Below, one piece after another: positions 16,701 to 64,000 of a stretch of 64,000 nucleotides of DNA. A program made the position numbers and the translations under genes. Below the pieces are notes generated by a model that ran no database searches, had not been told where the DNA came from, and saw nothing but the letters and a program-made list of their open reading frames with translations. Within the stretch, counting starts at the first letter, position 1; the number at the start of each line of letters is the position of its first letter. Source of the stretch: Mobula hypostoma (taxonomy: Eukaryota); assembly GCF_963921235.1 (NCBI RefSeq), contig NC_086097.1:76572001-76636000 (forward strand), in the 5' to 3' direction.

Positions 16701-19700
16701 TTTACAACCAGTATTTAAAGCATTTGCCCATGACCCCATTCAGTGCACTGGAGACTTGGGGCGTCAGTGCTGGTGATTATCTGTATGACGGGTATTTGTC
16801 AGTGAGACTGGAGTTTTCAGAAGCCGATGTGGGAGTGTGCAAAGTTCTGGAGACAGGGGGGGGGGGGGGGGGGGGTGGGGGGGTTGGGGGGGGGGAGGGT
16901 GGGTGCTTCAATTCTGATGGGGACCAACACCCCCGTGGTGTTCATGGGGGCCTGCCAGGAGAGGGTGTGTGAGAACTTTCTGGAGACACGGGCTGTGCAC
17001 CCAATGTTTCAAGCTGCTTTTGAGCAGTGCAGAGCCACCCTGGGCCGGATACTGAATGTAAGCGAGGGACTGTGTAGTGCACCCAGTCGAAGTCTAAGGT
17101 AGTAAGGCCCAGGTAAGTAGCGAGAGCGATGGGAACCTCCAGATTTCCCGGCATGCTTGGTGCCCTTTCAGTGGACGCCCCAGAAGATCTTGAGGGGGAG
17201 TCACGATTTCCGGCTGGGGTGCTGGTGAGGCCCGAAGTGCAGAGGCCCTCGGTGGTACAGGCGAACAGGATGGCGGTGGTTGTCAGGAACACCACGAAGA
17301 GAGATATTACCTTTAAGAGAGGGATGCCCCTGGCTCATTTGTTCCTGGTGACTGTAATGTTGCGGCTGCTGGGGGGGTGGGGGGGACACGATTGAAAAAC
17401 AGAGGGAAGCTGACAGCTGAGGCCTTTAACTTTGGGGACTCGCCAGTGCTGCCCGGTTAGAAGAAGAGGCTGGTGGAGAAGATGTTGAAGCTGGAAGATG
17501 TTTTTCCCTTGGCGAGTTCCATGTGGGTTGCTCCAAGAGCACTCGCCACACCATCGGGGTGACTGAGGATACCCCGTTCAGACAGAGGTCGCGGCGACTG
17601 GTCCCTGCAGATGTGGAAGATGTGTGCCAGCACCTGCGCAAGTTAAAGGAGGCTGGGATCATCTCTGAATCCCGAAGCCCTTATGCGTCTCCAATAGTAG
17701 TGGCCCGGAAGAAGAACAGAAAGGTACGTATGTGTGTGGACTATGGGACTCTAAACCGGCGCGTTGTCCCTGACCAGGATACAGTCCCGAGGGTTGGAGA
17801 CGTGCTGGCCTGTCTGAGTGGGGCAAAGTGGTTTAGTGTGCTGGACCTGAGGAGTGGGTACTACCAGATTCTGATGAGTGATGCCGATAGAGAGAAGATG
17901 GCATTTATATGCCCTCTGGGATTTTTCCAGTTCGAAAGGATGCGCCAGGGCATATCGGGAGCCCCTGCCATCTTCCAGAGGGCCATGGAGAAGACGGTGG
18001 GGGATATGAATTTGCTTGAAGTGTTGGTGTATTTGGATGACTTGATAGTATTTGGATCCACCTTGGAAGAGCACGAAGCGAGGCTACTGAAGGTGCTAAA
18101 CAGACTGAAGGAGGAAGGGTTAAAACTCTCCCTGGACAAATGCCAGTTCTGCAAGATGTCTGTTAGCTATGTTGGGCACATAATTTCGTGGGATGGAGTA
18201 GTTACGACCCGGCTAAGATAGAAGTGGTGACCACGTGGCCGAGGCCCCAGACTGTGAGCGCTCTACACTCATTCTTGGGGTTCTGTGGTTATTAACGGCG
18301 ATTCCTGAAGGGCTACGCCATAATGAGTCATCCCTTGAACCAGCTTCTGCGTGGTTACCCCCCCCACCAACCGAGGCAGAAAAGTAAAAGGGGACAGGAG
18401 ACTGGAGACTATCTATACCCATCGAAGCCCTTTGGGCAGAGGTGGAATGCAAAATGTGAGGAGGCTTTTAAATCTCTGAAAGAGTTGCTGACCCAGGTAC
18501 CGGTGTTGGCTTTTGTGGACCCCCAGTTACCCTATGTACTACACACCGATGCCAGCCGAGAGGGATTAGGGGCCGTCTTGTATCAAGATCAGGGTGCCGG
18601 GTTGAGACCTGTAGCGTTTGTCAGCCAGAGTTTGTCGCCCTCCCAGAGAAACTATACAACTATACCACCCACAAGTAGGAGTTCCTGGTGTTGAAATGGG
18701 CGGTGGTGGATAAATTAAGTGACCACCTCTACGGGGCCAAGTTTGAGGTGAGGACGGACAACAACCGGTTTACTTATATCGTGACATTGGCGAAACTGAA
18801 TGTTACAGGCCATTGTTGGTTGGCGGCCTTGTCGTTGTATGATTTCAGCCTGAAGTACCGGCCGGGGAGCCGGAACATCGATGCGGACGCTTTGTCCCAA
18901 CAGGCGCATGAGGAATTGGAGAGGGACCAGGAATGGGAGAGTGTTCCTGCCTCTGGGGTGAAGGCCTTGTGTCAGTTTGCTATCACTGTGAAGACTGAGG
19001 GAAAGGAGATGCCGTATGGTGCAGTGGACCCATTGAGGGCTTCTGACGACACCCTACCCCCAGTTTACTGTGACTTGACTGCTCTGAAGACAAACCAGCT
19101 GCTAGGATTGAGTCCAGGGTAAGTAGCAGCTGCTCAGCGAGATGACCCGAGCATTGGCACCATTTGGTACGCGGTGGAAAAGGGGGATATGGCGTGGGCA
19201 GAGAAGACAAAACATGCCGAGCATTGGCACCATTTGGTACGCGGTGGAAAAGGGGGATATGGCGTGGGCAGAGAAGACAAAACATAATTCGGTGCCTCCA
19301 TTACTGAGGGAATGGCCTTGGTTGAAGTTGAGGAAACAAATTTTATACCGGGTCACGTCACCCCTGCACCGACCACGGTGTTGGCAGTTGGTCCTGCCTG
19401 AGAAGTATCGGAAGATTGCGCTGAAGTCACTGCACAATGAGTCTGGACATCTGGGGGTGGAGAAGACCGATGGATTGCTCAAAGACTGGTTTTACTGGCC
19501 TCGAATGAAGTCGGAGGTTGAAGAATACTGCAAGTCGTGCATTCGCTGCATACGGCGGAAGACACTGCCTGTGCAGGCCGCTCCTTTGTCACACCTTCAG
19601 AGTGCAGGGCCCCTGGACTTGGTGTGTATGGATTTTCTGTCCATAGAACCCGATGCCAGCAACATGGCAAATGTCTTTGCCATCAAGGACCACTACACTA

Positions 19701-54479: not shown

Positions 54480-57400
54480 ACTCACTCTCTCTATACTCTT
54501 CCACACCCCACTGGTTCTACATGCACAGGAGACTGTGGTGGGTTCCAGTGCTGCAGGCAACTTTCTGGATAGACCCTGTATGTGCAGCTTTGACTTCCTG
54601 ATGAGCCTATCTCTTATCCCTTCCTGCATCACGGCCATTGATGGATGTCCCTGGAGGTCTGCGATGGTCAATAGCGTGTATGTGGCCTGTGCACATAAGC
54701 ATCAGAGAGCTCTGTGAATCCATCCAATTACTCCTGGTGCCTAACCCAACATTCTGCTCACCTTGGCTCTCCACTCACGATCCTCACTTTGCCTGCTCAT
54801 CCGGTTCACTGCTGAGTTTGGGACTCACCTGCCATACCACGTGCCAGCAGCCTCGGTTGACTTAACCATGTAAATCTCTCTGAAGATGGAGGAAACCCTT
54901 GATCTGAAGATGGAGGAAACCCTTGACATCACCAAACTCCCACAGGAATACCACAACCTTGCCATCATACTGATGGCAAGAGGAACCTCTCTGACCACAT
55001 GACTGGGTGATTGACCCCCTCCTGGACATCACCCCTCTCCGACATCATCTGTTCCCCCTCTTCCCTCATGAGACTAAAGCCATGAATGACTACATCATTG
55101 AAGCACTACAGCATAGCTTCATTTAACCGTTCCAGTCCCCAGCTAGTGCAGGATTCTTCCTTGATGTTCTTCGTCCCTGCATTGACACCATGGACTCAAC
55201 AAGATCACTGTTAACAACCACTACCCCCTCCCCATTGATTGATTGATGCTGCATTTGGAGCACTCCGTGGGGCCCTGATCTGCATCTTCTGCGGGGGGGG
55301 GGCGGGGGGAGTGAGTGGAAGATGGCGTTTATAACACCCACTCTGCACTAAGAATGCCTGGTGATGCCATTCGGACGTTTCAACAGTCCAGCCATTTTCC
55401 AAGCCTTCATTAATGAAATACTCCAAGGCATATGTGCTTGTCTACTTCGTTGACATCCTCATCTTCTCTAAGGATCCCTAAAACCATGTCTGTCATGTCC
55501 ATTCAGTCCTTCAGTGTCTCCTCAAAAACCATCTTTGCTCCAAATTAGAAAATTGCCAGTTCTACACCCCAGTTATTTCCAGAGATGTCCCCGACTGCGC
55601 TCCCTCAAACAGTTACAGTGTTTCTTGTGCTTCTCCAGCTTCTACTGCTGGTTCATCAGAAACTATAGCCAAATCACTGCTCCTCTTGCCTCCCTCTCCA
55701 AGCCACCTACTTCACAGATAATATGCTCTGATGACGTATACAGTGTTCTTGAGGAGCTCAAGAAATGCTTCACCACTGCTCCCATTCACCACTATCCAAA
55801 ATGCTCTGTACCTTTTGTGATAGAGGCAGACACATCTGTCGTGGGCAACGGGGCCATCCTCTCTCAGCAAGGAGCGGATGGGAAGACACACCCTTGTGCC
55901 ACTTTCTCATGCAAGTTCAACTCAACACAGCGGCATTAGGGAGTAGGAGGCAGGGAGTAGCTGGACTTTGGAGGAATGGAGACATTGGCTAAGGGGAAGC
56001 ATTGAGCCCTTTATGATCTGGACTGACCAGCAGAACCTCATATCCATACAACAGAACCACCAAATCAACCCAAATCAGACTTGCTGCGCCCTCTTCTTTG
56101 ACCAATTCAAATTCACCATCTCCTATTGGCCCAGCTCGAATAACACTAAAGCAGACACCTTTCTCAATCCAGCTGGAATGGAATTCGACCCTCAGCCATC
56201 ATTCTATCCTCCCGGATCCTCATCCCAGTCACCTGGGACTTTGAGAACCAGATCTACCAGGCACTATAGTACAAGCCTGCTTTGGCTAATGCCCCTGACA
56301 ACCGCTGGTGACCATACGCTCTGATGCACTCCAGTGAGCCACTTTGGCCATCCAGGTGCACAACAGACTCTGGATTTTCTATGATACCAGTTCTGGTGGC
56401 CCACCGTGATCGCAGATGTACGTCAGTTCATTGCTGTCTGTCCTCAATGTCCCCTGTCCAATTCCTCCAACGAATGGCTCTCTGGACTCCTGTGGCCCAT
56501 ACCAGTCCTTCGACCCCCCATAGTCATGCTTCATCATAGATTTTATCATGGGTTTGCTACCTTTCCAAGGGTGGGGGGGGGGGCACGATGATCATGACAG
56601 TGGTGGTCCGGTTGTCCAAGGTGACCTACTTCATTGCCCTCCTCAAACTTCCCTCAGCCGCTGAGATGGCAGGCCTAGTACTCCAACATGTAGTTTGCCA
56701 GCCCAGCTTTCTTCAAGGCATTGTATCAGACTAGAGCCCACAATCTGCCTCCTGCTTCTGGTGAGCCTCTGTTCCCTCCTGCATATTTTAGTGAGTTTAT
56801 CCACTAGCTATCATCTGCAGACCGGTGGGCAGTCAGAAAGAGCCAATCAGCAAGTGGAGAAGTTTCTGTGATGTTTTGCTGCCTCTAACCCTTCCAAATG
56901 GAAGAAGTATCTGCTTTGGGTTGAGCTGAACCACAATTTACACACCTCCTCTGCCATGGGAATGTCACACTTTTGAAGTGCTTCATAGCTACCAACCCTC
57001 ATTGTTCCCCTTGGAGAAGCCAACCGTGGAGGTCCTGTCTGCAAGAGCCCTGGTTTGCTGCTGCTGGAATGCTTGGAAGAGGGCATGGTGGGCCATCCTA
57101 GCTGGCAACTGTGCCTACTGCTGCCAGGCTAACCAGCTGCAGTGTCCACATAGACTAATCTAGTCTCAGAATCATGTTCAGCTGTCCACCCGAGATCTGC
57201 CCCTGAGCACTAACTCCCACAAGCTCTCACCCCAGTTCATCAGTCCCTTAAAAATTACCCATCGCAACAATCCAGTCACTTAGTCTCCAGTTGCCATTGT
57301 CCCTCAGGATCACACCTACCTTCTACATGTCCTGTTTCAAGGCCATTGGTCATGGACCACTTAACCTACAAGAGCCTGCACCTCTGAAACCTAGGATAAT

Positions 57401-57952
57401 GGAAGGTGGTCCAGTGCACGCAATTCACCGGTTGATGGATTCATGCCATCGTAGATGGGGTGTGCAATACCTCCTCGATTGAGAAGGGTACAGCCCGAGA
57501 AGATTTCTTGGATCCATCACTCTTTGAAGAGTTCCACCAGACTCGTCCAGATTACCTGGGCGGATGGGTACCAGTTGTAAGTGGAGGGTGGGGAAGAGGG
57601 TTCCTGTCAGGCCTACACAGGCAGGCACTTCCCAGTCTCATGAAGCTAACAGGAATCACCTGCCACTCACTTTCAACTTATTACCTGCAGCCTATTTAAA
57701 CCCAGCTCACACAGCAAACCAGCCGAACTCAAGCAGTTGCTCCTAGCTTTCAGTTACCTTGTTGCCTGCTGTGCTTTGTATCTGTTTTCTCTTGTTCTGT
57801 GGCCCTTTGTGGTTGTTATTCTGCAGTAAATTATTAATAATATCGTTTGTGGCTGAATCGTCTCCACTGCTCTGCTTTAGAGTCAACCATTCTCTACATT
57901 TTCTGACGTCCTGGTCCCATAAACCTTCAGTGCTGTCAGCCATTTCTTGACA
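54480..57952 (+). mobile_element. Heavily decayed sushi/chromovirus Gypsy (PR-RT-RH-IN-chromodomain plus 3'LTR 57605-57952)
   Basis: SSAAGNFLD (PR); FVIEADTS.VG.GAILSQ and EEWRHWL.G (RH); GHPG, SLRI.PTF..S (IN, GPY/F); GVQYLLD*EGYSP (chromodomain); PPT GGGGAAGAGGG; LTR TGTCAGG..TTGACA. Confidence 0.82.
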
Positions 57953-58934
57953 ACACATGAAATGAAGTGGCTTGAGACTGACCTCTGTGATGCTAAGGTT
58001 TTCAGGAGAAAACTGAGATGCATCAGCTGTTTGCTATTTTTAGCTGAACATGGTTTAGCCTTTTTCCTTAGTACTTGCATGCTGGGCTGTACCATTGTTG
58101 ATTTGGCTCGTTGGGTGCAAAATAAGACCCCAAGGCCATAAGAGCAGAATGAGTTCCGCTGGTCCAAAATCCACTCTCACTTCTCTTTTACTCTTTATAT
58201 ATCTGAAAATCTTTTTGTATCCTCTTGTATATTACTGACTAGCTTACCTTCATTTTTCATCTTTTCTCTCCTTATGTTTTGTTTAGTTGCCTTCTATTGG
58301 TTTTCTAAAGCTTCCCAATCCTCTAACTTACCAATAATTTTTGCTATTTTTACATGCCCACTGTTTTCCTTTAAAGCTGTTTTTGGCTTCCCTTCTCAGC
58401 CACGGTTGCCTCATCCTCCCTGTTATGGGAAAGCAGATTTGTGGATTCGGTGAGTGGGACAGAAGACACTGATTGTGAGTAAGTATACTAACTATTTATT
58501 CACAAGACAAACAGTGAAGCACTCAGCCAAGCATCAAACAAGTACTTAGCTAAGCCACTAAATGTTCAAAAACCATTCAAGCTAAACTCTTTTACAGATC
58601 CTTAGCTAAACTGAGCACCCAAAGTGGCAGGACAAAACAGACACTAAACATGCACACAGTGGCAAGCACTTAACTAGAGCACACCCCCACTGTTTACTGT
58701 TTCCGCAGGACCCTCTTCTACCTGGTGCATGGTATCGGACAGGAAGAAAGAGACCGCATGGTTAATGCGCACTGGACTTGAACCCCACTGGAGCTGTGAC
58801 ATCATCAGCTAAGCAGAAGCCGCTGGGAGGGATTGCAATGCTCCTCACGCAAGTCAGTTCTTGCCTCCAATGGACAGGGCTTTTATTGAGCAGGTAAGTT
58901 AAGACAGTTACTATAATGTTCCACCCCTCAAAAG

Positions 58935-60070
58935 CTACAACACTGTGACACTCAACCCAAGGCTAGTATAACCCCTTGGATGCCTCACAATACTACACAT
59001 AAAACATAACACAATAATACGCAGAATTATCAGCTCACCAGTTACTACGGTAGTCCGCCAACCTCCGAATGCCCCAAAAGACCAACCACTCCCTACTTAT
59101 GGAGCTATCCCCCTATTTTCCTAATCTTGTATGGATATGATCACGCGGGTGAGTAATGTTCCCAGACAAGTTGGGGATGTAGGAGCAGCACTCTTGACCA
59201 GCACTCTCAGTACAGCTGCCACCTTTCTTCGGGAGCAGATAGACTGAGGCCATCTGATTGTGCTAGGCCACCATCCGAATTACCATCAACACTTGGATCA
59301 GCCCATCCTCCACGTGCTTGAAAACTCTGGCCATCTCATTAGCCAGTGCCGCCATCACAGAGGAAGGCATATCAGTTCCCGGGACAACCTAGATGTACCA
59401 CACGGCTATCATACAGAATCTTTCTGCCCCTGTGATACGCCTCTTACTGCATGACCTTCATGGGCAGCATGCTCATTCAGGCTATTAGGGCTATTAATAC
59501 TGTACCACGTACCCCAGATGGCAGCAGTCACACCATCCTGTGAAAGTCACAGGTAGGCCCGGGAGCTGCAAATCCAGTATGTATCACTTAGCATCCAGGG
59601 TGTGCCCACCTTCACAGCACCAATTGGTGTTGACACAGTTGTCCCAGGATACTGCTCCCATCCACGCTCGCTGTGTCCCACTGACTGATTGGACCTTTGC
59701 TCATCATATTGCCTGTACCAACGCCTTTTCCCCTTCCCTGTATTACTCTGCTGTTCAGGACCTTGAAATTAGATAAATTGTATGTGGGGAAGTACTGAGG
59801 GTTACTGAGGATCAAGGCATTTCCAATGGTATGGAGGGAGATTGGCTGGAATGGACTATTCTTTCCAGGCTTTCCCAAGACAGAATGCCAAAATATGATA
59901 AGCTGGACAAGTTCTTCCAGCGGTCCTGTTCTTTGTTATTAAAGGGGATTGGTGTCAGTTGCAACCCTTCTTTAACACGTGATGGCCCCTCATGCAGCCC
60001 AAACAGTCTGAAGCTTTGATGTGGTTCGCATACTCATATGCCATCCGCAGGAATGTATTGTTGGATCACA
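58935..60070 (-). pseudogene. Retroviral env (gamma-type SU/TM), disrupted
   Basis: Manual translation across stops and frameshifts: NTFLRMAYEYANHIKASDCLGC; TYWICSSRAYL / GWCDCCHLGYV; CSKRR (furin-site remnant); IRMVA*HNQMASVYLLPKKGGSCTESAGQECCSYIPNLSGNIT (ISD plus Cys loop); GWSFGAFGGW and hydrophobic anchor LIILRIIVLCFMCSIV. Confidence 0.82.
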
Positions 60071-60519
60071 CTCTCACACACTGTCACACAAACTTATGTG
60101 TGGCCACATGTTGTGCAACATTTTTCAAACTCACTATTCACACTTCACTATGAGACAGGGCAAATGACCTCCCTGCAGGGGTTGGGTAGGAAGGCACGAC
60201 TCAACACCCAACCCCTGCTGCCACTGAAGGTCAGACAGTGTCTTTTGTACAGGCTCCAGCGAGGGCTATCAGAGGAATCCTGCCAAGGGCTTGGGGAATG
60301 ACCTTCTTGTCTTAACGGCCTCCTGAACACTCTGCCCTGGCTGTACTCTGACCACATAATATAGAGGGTGGGAGTGCCCCAGCCCCGAGCACTGCTAAGA
60401 ACACCTTACAGATCATGCGGGATCCCCAGCTCCCTGTTTGCTTAGCCAGCTTCTGAACATGGCTACACGTACCTTTTCCCAAATACTCCCACCCTTCCAG
60501 CAACTGAATGACTGCAACT

Positions 60520-60813
60520 GGGGCAGCACTGCAGCCTAGTCGCTAGCAGCATGCTTGACAGTACCAGCAACTCGGGTTCAATTCCAGCCGCTGTCTCCAA
60601 GGAGTTTGTACCTTCTCCCCATGACTGTGTGGGTTTCCTCTGGGTGCTCCAGTTTCCTTCCACGGTACAAAGATATACTGGTTGGTAGGTTAATTGGTCA
60701 TTGTAAGTTACTGTGTGATTAGGCTAGAATTAAATTGGGGGTTGTTTGGCGGTGAAGCTGAAAGCCGAGAAGGGCTTAATCCATGCTGTATTTCAATAAA
60801 TAAATTTTTTAAA
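60520..60813 (+). mobile_element. tRNA-derived V-SINE/HE1-like SINE inserted in the ERV
   Basis: B box GGTTCAATTCC, V-core GGGTTTCCTCTGGGTGCTCCAGTTTCC, AATAAATAAA tail. Confidence 0.78.
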
Positions 60814-60814
60814 A

Positions 60815-62020
60815 TTCTGGTAACTCTGATTGCCAGTTCTATTAAAGGCAGCACCACCCCTTTCAAGTGGTGAACCACTGTCATAACCAAATGCCCTACC
60901 ACTGCAGGGGTCAGTTCAGAATCCTCTGGTGGGCTATCACTATCACTGTATAAATCTGTAATTAGAGCACACTGGTGAGGAGCTCTGGTCCTTTCCTCTA
61001 CTGTGCTCCACTCCGCCTGGGGCTTCAAATCCCACTCAAGGAGGGAAGGGTACCTGACCTTGACCACTGCTGCCCTCCGATCCCTTAAGGATTTATTACT
61101 CTCACGGGAAGTGAGCAGCATTGTCAAAGTGTTATTGACCACGTGTTGGGACATTAGCTGCCCCCTAAGGTATCCATCTCTCAATTAGATACTCACTCCA
61201 GCATGCACCCCACCCCACTATATCCTCAACAACCATGTGGCCAAAAGCTTTTCTGTCTTCTTCATCTGTACCTATCTCGCAATCTTGGTGGAGAACTCCC
61301 TGATTTCTGTTGTCACGGAGGGGCCTACTGCACTACTTCTCCCCCCCCCCCGCACGTTCTTGTCTTCCTGTCCAATGAAAGTCCAAGAAACACTGTCCAA
61401 AGCCCTTTATGCTGGGTATGGAACTGCGTGATCACTGGTCTGGCCTGTACTGTCTTGGCTCCACAAGGGGAAAGGGAGAACATCGTGAGGTAGAATATCC
61501 CCATCACCATCCCTTCAGATATCCCAATCCCCCATTCACATGTTGGAATCATCTCCCCGCGGCATCAAGGTTCAAACTTTAAAGGGACCTGGTTGACATT
61601 GGTCAACCTTGAATTGCTGCACCTTCACTAGCCAACAGGCTATCTGTGTACCATTGTCTTCTAGGTTTTTGGCCAGACTGTGTGCCAAACAGACAGCTTC
61701 TCCCGTTGTACAGTGCTGGCGCAGCTCCTCCACCTTGTTGTTGAGACTTACTAGCTCCTGCTCTCTCTCTACGATCTTCTCATGCTGGTACATTATGATG
61801 GCTGCCAGCAGTCAGAAAACATCCCTCTAGTTCCCCTTTTACTTGGGGAACCATGTCTTAGTAAGTATGAGCATGGTGTGATGTCCAATTTTTCACCCCG
61901 TGGGAGTCCGACTTGTCTGACCAGTTTACGGACTCCCAAGTCCTGCTCTGTTGTTGGTGCACCCCAGGTCTCAGCACTCCTCATACAGTGGGTTCTCTCT
62001 CTCATTTTTCCTTCTAAAGA
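60815..62020 (-). pseudogene. Retroviral gag, class III (ERV-L/ERV-S-like), disrupted
   Basis: Coiled-coil N-part; FKV*TLM..DWDI* (cf. ERV-L KVRALI..WDGDVW); ATWLLRI* (cf. EWILRVWD); VKVRYP..EWSTVEE..LY...PEDSELT (cf. RWP..W..VEEG..PEDIPFT). Comparisons from recall. Confidence 0.62.
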
Positions 62021-62232
62021 TACTCATCGTCTGTACAAACAGAATCCTGCTGACCACAACAAATGCCAAGGGAAAACATTTGCAGATTTGATGCATGGAA
62101 CAGAAGACACTGCAGTAAGCATGTTAACTATTTATTTACAAGACAAACAGTGAAACACTCAACCAAATATCAAAGTCAAAAAAGTACTTATCCAAGTCCC
62201 TTATGTTACAAGACTATGATACTGGACCTTCA

Positions 62233-64000
62233 TAGAACACAGAACATAGAATAGTACAGCACAGTACAGGCCCTTCAGCCCACAATGTTGTGCCGACTCT
62301 TAAACCCTGCCTCCTATATAACCCCCCCCCACCTTAAATTCCTCCATATACCTGTCTAGTAGTCTCTTAAATTTCACTGGTGTATCTGCCTCCACCACTG
62401 ACTCAGGCAGTGCATTCCACGCACCAACCACTCTCTGAGTAAAAAAACCTTCCTCTAATATCCCCCTTGAACTTCCCACCCCTTACCTTAAAGCCATGTC
62501 CTCTTGTATTGAGCAGTGGTGCCCTGGGGAAGAGGCGCTGGCTGTCCACTCTATCTATTCCTCTTAATATCTTGTCTACCTCTATCATGTCTCCTCTCAC
62601 TTCCTTCTCTTCAAAGAGTAAAGCCCGAGCTCCCGTAATCTCTGATTATAATGCATATTCTCTAAACTAGGTAGCATCATGGTAAATCTCCTCTGTACCC
62701 TTTCCAGTGCTTCCACACCCTTCCTATAGTGAGATGACCAGAACTGGACACAGTACTCCAAATGTGGCCTGACCAGAGTTTTATAGAGCTACATTATTAC
62801 ATCGCGACTCTTAAACTCTATCCCTCGACTTATGAAAGCTAACACCCCATAAGCTTTCTTAACTACCCTATCTACCTGTGAGGTAACTTTAGGGAATCTG
62901 TGGACATGTACCCCCTGATCCCTCTGCTCCTCCACACTACCAAGTATCCTGCCATTTACTTTGTACTCTGCCTTGGAGTTTTTCCTTCCAAGGTGTACCA
63001 CCTCACACTTCTCTGGGTTGAACTCCATCTGCCACTTCTCAGCCCACTTCTGCATCCTATCAATGTCTCTCTGCAATCTTTGACATTCCTCTACACTATC
63101 TACAACACCACCAACCTTTGTGTCGTCTGCAAACTTGCCAACCCACCCTTCTACCCCCACATCCAGGTCGTTAATAAAAATCACGAAAAGTAGAGGTCCC
63201 AGAACAGATCTTTGTGGGACACCACTAGTCACAATCCTCCAATCTGAATGTACTCCCTCCACCACCACCCTCTGCCTTCTGCAGGCAAACCAATTCTGAA
63301 TCCACCTGGCTAAATTTCCCTGGATCCCATGCCTTCTGACTTTCTGAACAATCCTACCATGTGGAACCTTGTCAAATGCCTTACTAAAATCCATGTAGAT
63401 CACATCCACTGCACTACCCTCATCTATATGCCTGGTGACCTCCTCAAAGAACTCTATCAGGCTTGTTAGACATGATCTGCCCTTCACAAAGCTATACTGA
63501 CTGTCCCTGATCAGACCATGATTCTCTAAATGCCCATAAATCCTATTTCTAAGAATCTTTTCCAACAGCTTTCCCACCACAGACGTAAGGCTCACTGGTC
63601 TATAATTACCCAGACTATCCCTACTACCTTTTCTGAACAAAGGGACAACATTTGCCTCCCTCCAATCCTCTGGTACCATTCCCATAGACAACGAGGACAT
63701 AAAGATTCTAGCCAGAGGCTCAGCAGTCTCTTTCCTCGCCTCGTGGAGCAGCCTGGGGAATATTCCATCAGGCCCCGGGTACTTATCTGTCCTAATGTAT
63801 TTTAACAAATCTAATACCTCCTCTCCCTTAATAACAACATGCTCCAGAACATCAACCTGACTCATATTGTCCTCACCATCATCAAGTTCCCTCTCATTGG
63901 TGAATACCAATGAGAAGTATTCATTGAGGACCTCGCTCACTTCCACAGCCTCCAGGCACATCTACCCACCTTTATCTCTAATCGGTCCTACCTTCACTCC
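62233..64000 (-). mobile_element. CR1 LINE with a largely open RT frame (62789-63961); continues beyond the window
   Basis: PGPDGI.P, NYRPVSLTS, YMDFSKAFDKV, SGVPQ.SVLGP, KFADDTK; 3' tail (TTCTATG)n-like at 62233-62253. Confidence 0.92.

Follow-up and report, generated by a model that had tools for sequence, protein, structure and literature searches.

A pol-less class III endogenous retrovirus in the ray Mobula hypostoma, probably an early copy of a branch that spread with borrowed enzymes and its own Gag

The window analysed here, a stretch of 64,000 nucleotides from Mobula hypostoma (assembly GCF_963921235.1, contig NC_086097.1, positions 76,572,001 to 76,636,000), carries the remains of an endogenous retrovirus (ERV) on its minus strand. 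Read along that strand, its parts are a long interspersed element (LINE), a piece of the 5′ long terminal repeat (LTR), a primer binding site (PBS), gag, a short interspersed element (SINE), the tail of gag, the start of a spacer, env, a polypurine tract (PPT) and the 3′ LTR (Table 1); no pol sequence lies between gag and env of this provirus. An earlier note, made from the letters alone, had proposed this LTR-PBS-gag-env-PPT-LTR order without pol, and the window sequence agrees. Two of its details need revision. The SINE and ∼450 bp that it placed between gag and env belong mostly to gag: the SINE lies inside the gene, the 450 bp are largely gag tail, which resumes 3′ of the SINE and runs to ∼60300 (relatives join ∼60815 to 60516), and ∼100 bp are a spacer of the family. 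The 5′ LTR, which it placed in the window, is present there as its last ∼150 bp; it is split by the LINE and resumes for ∼240 bp beyond it, at ∼64910–65146, past the window end, and the first ∼130 bp of this LTR were not found. The LINE at 62232–63115 is 93% identical to one inserted in another copy of the family (L034), and is therefore much younger than the provirus. An Atlas assignment, taken as a lead only, places the LINE in Chordata; the SINE has what we take to be a V-SINE-like core.

Table 1. Parts of the decayed provirus and its insertions, in window coordinates.
Feature	Position	Strand	Remarks
3′ LTR	58421..58918	−	498 bp, terminal ACA
Polypurine tract	58919..58929	−	Identical tract in 13/13 family rows compared
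Decayed gamma-type env, 5′ start lost	58990..60076	−	Many stops and frame changes; transmembrane heptad region retained
Env membrane anchor	59033-59001	−	
Env Cys loop	59214-59185	−	
Env immunosuppressive domain (ISD)-like segment	59262-59233	−	
Env basic cleavage site	∼59445	−	
Env CxxC	60005-59994	−	
Start (∼100 bp) of the spacer that replaces pol in the family	60077..60180	−	Truncated by private ∼700-bp deletion at ∼60076
C-terminal part of gag and bases just beyond, 3′ of SINE	60181..60516	−	
SINE	60520..60812	+	Later insertion in gag, antisense to provirus
Decayed class III gag	60815..62027	−	Start codon 62027
Primer binding site, tRNA-Ser(AGA) type	62043..62061	−	15/19 bases
3′ piece of 5′ LTR	62064..62217	−	Last ∼150 bp of LTR
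Younger LINE in 5′ LTR	62232..64000	−	RVT_1, E 2.5e-31; extends to ∼64910

No single frame of the window gag or env matches a retroviral Pfam family, and a protein search with the window gag frame returned nothing within its length range; the identification was made through relatives. The frame at 62027–60801 matches residues 1–433 of a red stingray Gag-Pol protein, P0001, without change of frame (E 1.7e-23), and env matches an Atlantic stingray protein bearing TLV_coat (E 2.6e-20). Both of the nearest named proteins come from Dasyatidae, which points to a ray host. The profile search suggested in the earlier note thus gave nothing directly from the window frames and succeeded by way of these stingray proteins. 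P0001 has no zf-CCHC match, and the gag copies of the family are too decayed to be scored firmly for a Cys-His box; an Atlas assignment of the stingray Gag to spuma Gag (0.88) is used only as a lead.

The surface and transmembrane (TM) landmarks expected of a gamma-type env are present in the window but are split across two frames. Its TM piece gives matches to chains of filovirus GP2 and of syncytin-1 (E 6e-4 to 9e-4), and that of a relative gives a match to syncytin-1 (E 4e-7). A class I (gamma-type) TM with an ISD and a CX6CC loop is found in the family, the window itself having CX7CC. The gamma-type env of the earlier note accordingly stands on the landmarks and on the TLV_coat-bearing match, with the reservation that the loop is altered and the reading frame broken. 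An intact, co-opted env was considered and dropped, since the candidate P0035 consists of a gag tail and part of an env from a sister lineage, and no full-length stop-free match is listed in the genome. In P0035, a stingray protein labelled 'PABLB Env-like', a class III gag tail is fused to the second half of env; its gene model likely spans a provirus.

The window PBS matches 15 of 19 bases of the 3′ end, with CCA, of the genome's own tRNA-Ser(AGA), as the proposed Ser primer would have it; 16 of 2000 random windows reach 14/19. Scores of at least 14/19 against the genome's tRNA-Ser are seen in 30 of 43 family copies. LTR ends are TGT...ACA: the window 3′ LTR keeps its terminal ACA, its start triplet has decayed, and TGT starts are found in L117 and several others. 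The two LTRs of the window differ at 85 of 367 columns (23%; Kimura two-parameter distances 0.23 and 0.32), close to the ∼20% and the great age that had been estimated by eye. Dating in years was tried and rejected, since 2.2e-10 per site per year, the rate assumed in PMC4422223, gives >500 million years.

DNA and protein searches of the same genome reveal many relatives of the element, at ∼62–83% DNA identity (119 of 928 first-look candidates from the gag search were scored). Some have the same gag and env with protease (PR), reverse transcriptase (RT), RNase H and integrase in between; all such copies are broken. As far as compared, pol-bearing and pol-less copies have LTR, gag and env in common. 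In the RT tree, 14 RTs of the family form one clade (SH-aLRT, a likelihood-based branch support, 100), sister to a second lineage of the same genome (99.8). These two group with stingray P0001 and a third lineage (96.9) on the class III side, apart from gamma-type and Gypsy sequences; foamy, snakehead, epsilon and named HERV-S references are absent from this tree, the stingray element being the named neighbour. Viral contigs yielded no retroviral reference, and none of the 34 proteins returned by the protein search was a named HERV-S Pol. L062 and L064, near-duplicates of L063, and copies with <150 aligned residues were omitted. Because the reference rows were anchored on one copy, an anchor-free control was added, in which mean scores are 91–182 bits for the class III-side references compared with 29–44 for gamma-type and Gypsy references. 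P0007 is presumably MuERV-L-like. The YIDD motif is intact in one family copy, L046, and in the sister lineages, and in none of the other family copies scanned. No dUTPase was matched by tblastn with two queries, and the gap between integrase and env is 248–374 bp in nine family copies. Sequence comparison thus supports a family that combines class III gag and pol with a Ser PBS and a gamma-type env. The class III gag of the earlier note is upheld by the P0001 match together with the RT of the relatives, and the pol-bearing relatives it asked about do exist, their RT grouping with class III and not with Gypsy or gamma-type elements.

Two further, better-kept class III lineages are seen in the genome (L062–L068, L078, L081, L128). 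The env of one of them, the sister lineage of the family, is 76–86% identical to the Hypanus (Atlantic stingray) protein named above. A younger class III element at L063:4770-5340 (also in L062 and L064, all small contigs) has an RT with 6–7 in-frame tandem 81-bp units holding YIDD.

How pol-less copies and pol-bearing copies are related is seen from a census of 60 of 126 gag matches, taken in rank order with pol ignored; 21 loci taken earlier and two others were left out. Of these 60, 28 are of a type that we call C (gag and a ∼850-bp non-coding spacer, with env in 23), eight are of type A (a related spacer), one, also of type A, has the spacer with a C-terminal remnant of integrase, six have PR/RT and 17 are unclassified. 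Pooled with the 21 earlier loci, the spacer is present in 43 of 81 and PR/RT in 16 of 81. Copies on many contigs have a collinear type C spacer, and a genome search with this spacer gave 335 first-look candidates, of which 40 were scored; the pol-less copies likely number in the hundreds. Pol-bearing copies pass from gag into protease, not into spacer, and the spacer module occurs in none of 40 further loci with pol matches. Neither window 57000–64000 nor a type C spacer has an Rfam match, and Pfam searches of the spacer frames yielded no meaningful hit; captured host RNA is a conceivable source of the spacer. Gaps of 4 kb in L032 and L034 were considered as pol and rejected, their content being LINEs and other repeats.

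The copies form a graded series. In the gag tree (5 of 90 rows dropped) the window lies among the pol-bearing and integrase-remnant copies, and these are followed by later type A copies, intermediates and a type C clade (0.979). The share of type C bases rises in the same direction, from ∼0.1 in pol-bearing copies and the window through 0.3, 0.4, 0.6–0.7 and 0.8 to 0.9+; it is even along gag and increases in parallel in env. Env decays along the series. Just 1 of 26 type C copies, none of 5 intermediates and 1 of 6 later type A copies cover the TM heptad bin, as against 9 of 14, 6 of 7 and 4 of 6 in older groups. The deletion responsible is common to later type A, intermediate and type C copies, measures exactly 124 bp in six cleanly aligned ones and is absent from the window. 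Type C copies share further frame-changing indels in env; in gag, no C-specific frame-changing indel is consistent across three references. Shared stop columns in gag were rejected as a signal because they lie in a block where the window frame is off and are found in all groups. The primer also changes: among copies scoring at least 14/19, with the window set apart, the PBS is of Ser-AGA type in 10 of 11 PR/RT-bearing copies and of Ser-CGA type in 6 of 7 later type A and type C copies, type C being represented by a single copy at this score. As a separate observation, the PR/RT-bearing L046 and the integrase-remnant L054 have TM deletions of 147 and 138 bp that overlap the late pol-less one, arising either by independent loss or by recombination.

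A signal of selection on gag can be read within the pol-less branch. Between its type C and later type A groups, the net gag distances at first, second and third codon positions are 0.170, 0.122 and 0.301, a third-position excess of 0.155 (bootstrap 0.066–0.235) that does not appear when the codon phase is scrambled. On the stem leading to type C the changed sites in gag are 20/178, 16/187 and 39/167 by codon position (0.112, 0.086 and 0.234; Fisher p 8e-5). Env on the same stem is flat by codon position with three references (p 0.34–1.0), whereas the same env columns, compared with the sister lineage as a positive control, show a clear third-position excess. Of 54 rows, 6 were dropped for the trimmed gag test and 18–20 for the env tests. 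Type C outnumbers the other pol-less subtypes, but with its shared env deletions and lack of codon constraint in env it does not amount to a working gag-env element. The gag-env-only non-autonomous family of the earlier note survives as a pol-less family with a spacer, but one in which late env is broken and pol-bearing members exist.

We consider it probable that the window holds a long-dead, early-stage copy of a pol-less class III branch that spread by borrowing PR, RT and integrase from pol-bearing members of the family while keeping its own Gag. In outline, the spacer would have replaced PR, RT, RNase H and most of integrase in one master, whose RNA, still furnished with the LTRs, PBS, PPT and probably the packaging signal, could have been co-packaged with the Pol of a helper. 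At the stage of the window the early pol-less master would still have had the integrase remnant and a full-length env; later masters may have lost the integrase remnant and then a working env, giving intracellular spread, and would have taken the Ser-CGA-type primer site, likely via recombination. Gag would have stayed under selection, most likely through favouring its own RNA, as proposed for the MaLR elements of mammals. The window copy itself would afterwards have lost a further ∼700 bp and received the SINE and the LINE. With more modest confidence we lean towards the broader view that rays evolved a MaLR of their own independently of mammals, the genome keeping every step and gag being held under selection.

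Several observations weigh against this account. Third positions of gag are changed about twice as often as env (0.07–0.11) or spacer (0.12), mostly by C>T and G>A, and first and second positions no less than env or spacer; this is not what a single lineage with neutral passengers predicts. Two loci with pol matches have a partly derived gag (L169 at 9 of 19 sites, L197 at 25 of 66); gag could be scored in just 12 of the 40 pol-hit loci. At the stage of the window the net distance to pol-bearing copies is ∼0.01, so that selection leaves no readable signal there. The gag tree is midpoint-rooted and poorly supported at its deep nodes, 22 of the 81 pooled loci are unclassified, and 5-bp target-site duplications were not readable in any of 15 copies tried. 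Every pol-bearing family copy seen is broken, and no intact helper was found among them.

Some of these observations would also fit an alternative in which the branch is non-autonomous and gag a passenger, renewed again and again through recombination with an autonomous helper that evolved alongside it; the selection signal would then belong to the helper. The twofold surplus at gag third positions relative to env and spacer, the primer-site switch, which points to exchange at the 5′ end, and the partly derived gag of the two pol-hit loci all speak for it. The derived bases, however, are spread evenly, without blocks, and rise together in gag and env; none of the 12 scorable new pol-hit loci reaches the 0.66–0.99 level of the late copies, and gag, in contrast to env, has no consistent C-specific frameshift. 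We regard this alternative as unlikely, though still a live one.

On its own, the single window locus is real, old, dead and ordinary debris. The short join at ∼60076 between spacer and env is private to it, being spanned by none of the 110 loci fetched and by none of 39 other matches in the genome; the pol deletion that the earlier note thought might recur in other copies does not do so in this form, although the pol-replacing spacer is common to the pol-less copies. Contigs of two other organisms do span the join, X5 with 41 differences in 1875 bases and X13 with 153 differences and 80 gap letters in 1293 bases; by their sequences both are likely orthologs of the window insertion, and the ∼700-bp deletion is accordingly old. 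As the LTR pair is about twice as divergent as X13 is from the window, the insertion would be about twice as old as the X13 split. The private join and the position of the window gag among pol-bearing copies could suggest that this copy inserted as a complete provirus and lost pol later by local deletion. Between gag and the join, however, the window has the spacer start of the pol-less copies, which is matched by seven copies, all pol-less or unclassified and none PR/RT-bearing, whereas pol-bearing copies go from gag to protease; a complete insertion is thus largely refuted and very improbable. Multiplication of the pol-less copies by DNA duplication rather than reverse transcription is hardly credible: a few near-identical copies (L111, L123, L126) and the lack of recovered target-site duplications would suit it, but most copies are on different contigs, ∼25–35% apart, with similarity confined to the element. 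The near-identity of L111, L123 and L126, three type C copies with branch lengths of 0.02–0.03, is probably due to segmental duplication.

Other retroelement remains are present in the window. A decayed Gypsy-type pol adjoins the provirus at 55300–57300 (+), with matches to RT, RNase H, integrase zinc finger and SH3, and a Gypsy-side RT piece at 17505–17966 (+) served as an outgroup row in the RT tree.

Comparison with known systems shows the closest parallel to be functional rather than genealogical. Like the ERVL-MaLR elements of mammals (MLT, MST, THE1), the ray family is class III and non-autonomous, kept gag without pol and had successive masters (PMC10735291, PMC6466679); a cis-preference of Gag is there offered only as a proposal (PMC10735291). 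It differs in its likely independent origin, in the far fewer copies seen, in the persistence of env, which early copies have in full and late copies in broken form, and in the survival of pol-bearing parents and intermediates in the same genome. With env present and an internal region that is not gag-only, the ray family works like MaLR but is no MaLR member.

HERVS, XtERV-S and one element of an anamniote are already known to combine a class III pol and a class I env. XtERV-S of Xenopus tropicalis has ERV-L-type gag and pol, YIDD, a Ser(AGA/TGA) PBS, a class I TM with CX6CC and TGT...ACA ends, and includes 19 internally deleted copies that may be compared with the deleted ray copies (PMC8278194). 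The dUTPase that follows integrase in ERV-L and XtERV-S was not found in the ray family, which is old. HERVS/ERV-S elements likewise pair class III pol with a class I env related to PRIMA41/PABL and have no dUTPase (PMC4724089, PMC5753468); the best named env match of the ray family is the 'PABLB-like' stingray protein. The ray RT, by contrast, forms a separate clade with the stingray element, in a tree that contains no named HERV-S. The term 'ERV-S-like' is apt for the anatomy of the ray family, and says nothing on descent from HERV-S.

A survey of ERVs with gamma-type Env in fish and amphibians reports them from six cartilaginous fish, and also describes an element, ERV-SA.a-Ppe, that pairs class III Pol with a class I Env (bioRxiv 10.1101/2021.11.23.469661); the part of that survey available to us does not describe a pol-less series, and its supplements may list the ray family. 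Clade Huo is stated to occur across all major vertebrate lineages (PMC8922424), and shark surveys record snakehead-like, epsilon-like and foamy-like lineages (PMC4422223, PMC10699275). RNA that has LTRs, PBS, PPT and a packaging signal can be copied by helper Pol, as is reported for bovine D-type elements, IAP 1delta1, ETn and VL30 (PMC10924933, PMC6466679). These bovine ERVK D-type, mouse IAP 1delta1, ETn and VL30 elements, and the gag-env proviruses of grouse, spread by trans-complementation and can outnumber the helper, and a gag-derived protein of mouse IAP 1delta1 is reported to act in cis (PMC10924933, PMC6466679, PMC10820513). They belong, however, to class I or II, and most of them are young or non-coding, whereas the ray line is class III and diverged by 10–25% after the loss of pol. 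Our literature search turned up no description of class III elements forming a pol-less series in cartilaginous fish; the family may nevertheless be listed in Repbase, in Dfam or in the bioRxiv supplements, which lay outside this search.

The family adds an old class III lineage with a gamma-type env in cartilaginous fish, most copies of which would be missed by screens for ERVs based on pol. The origin of MaLR from ERV-L and the role of the retained gag are open questions in the field. A second, MaLR-like case, with parents, intermediates and a dead env on the same RNA as a built-in control, makes the question of gag testable by sequence analysis. If rays did evolve a MaLR independently, the comparison with mammals would be evidence that class III elements lacking pol depend on their own Gag in cis.

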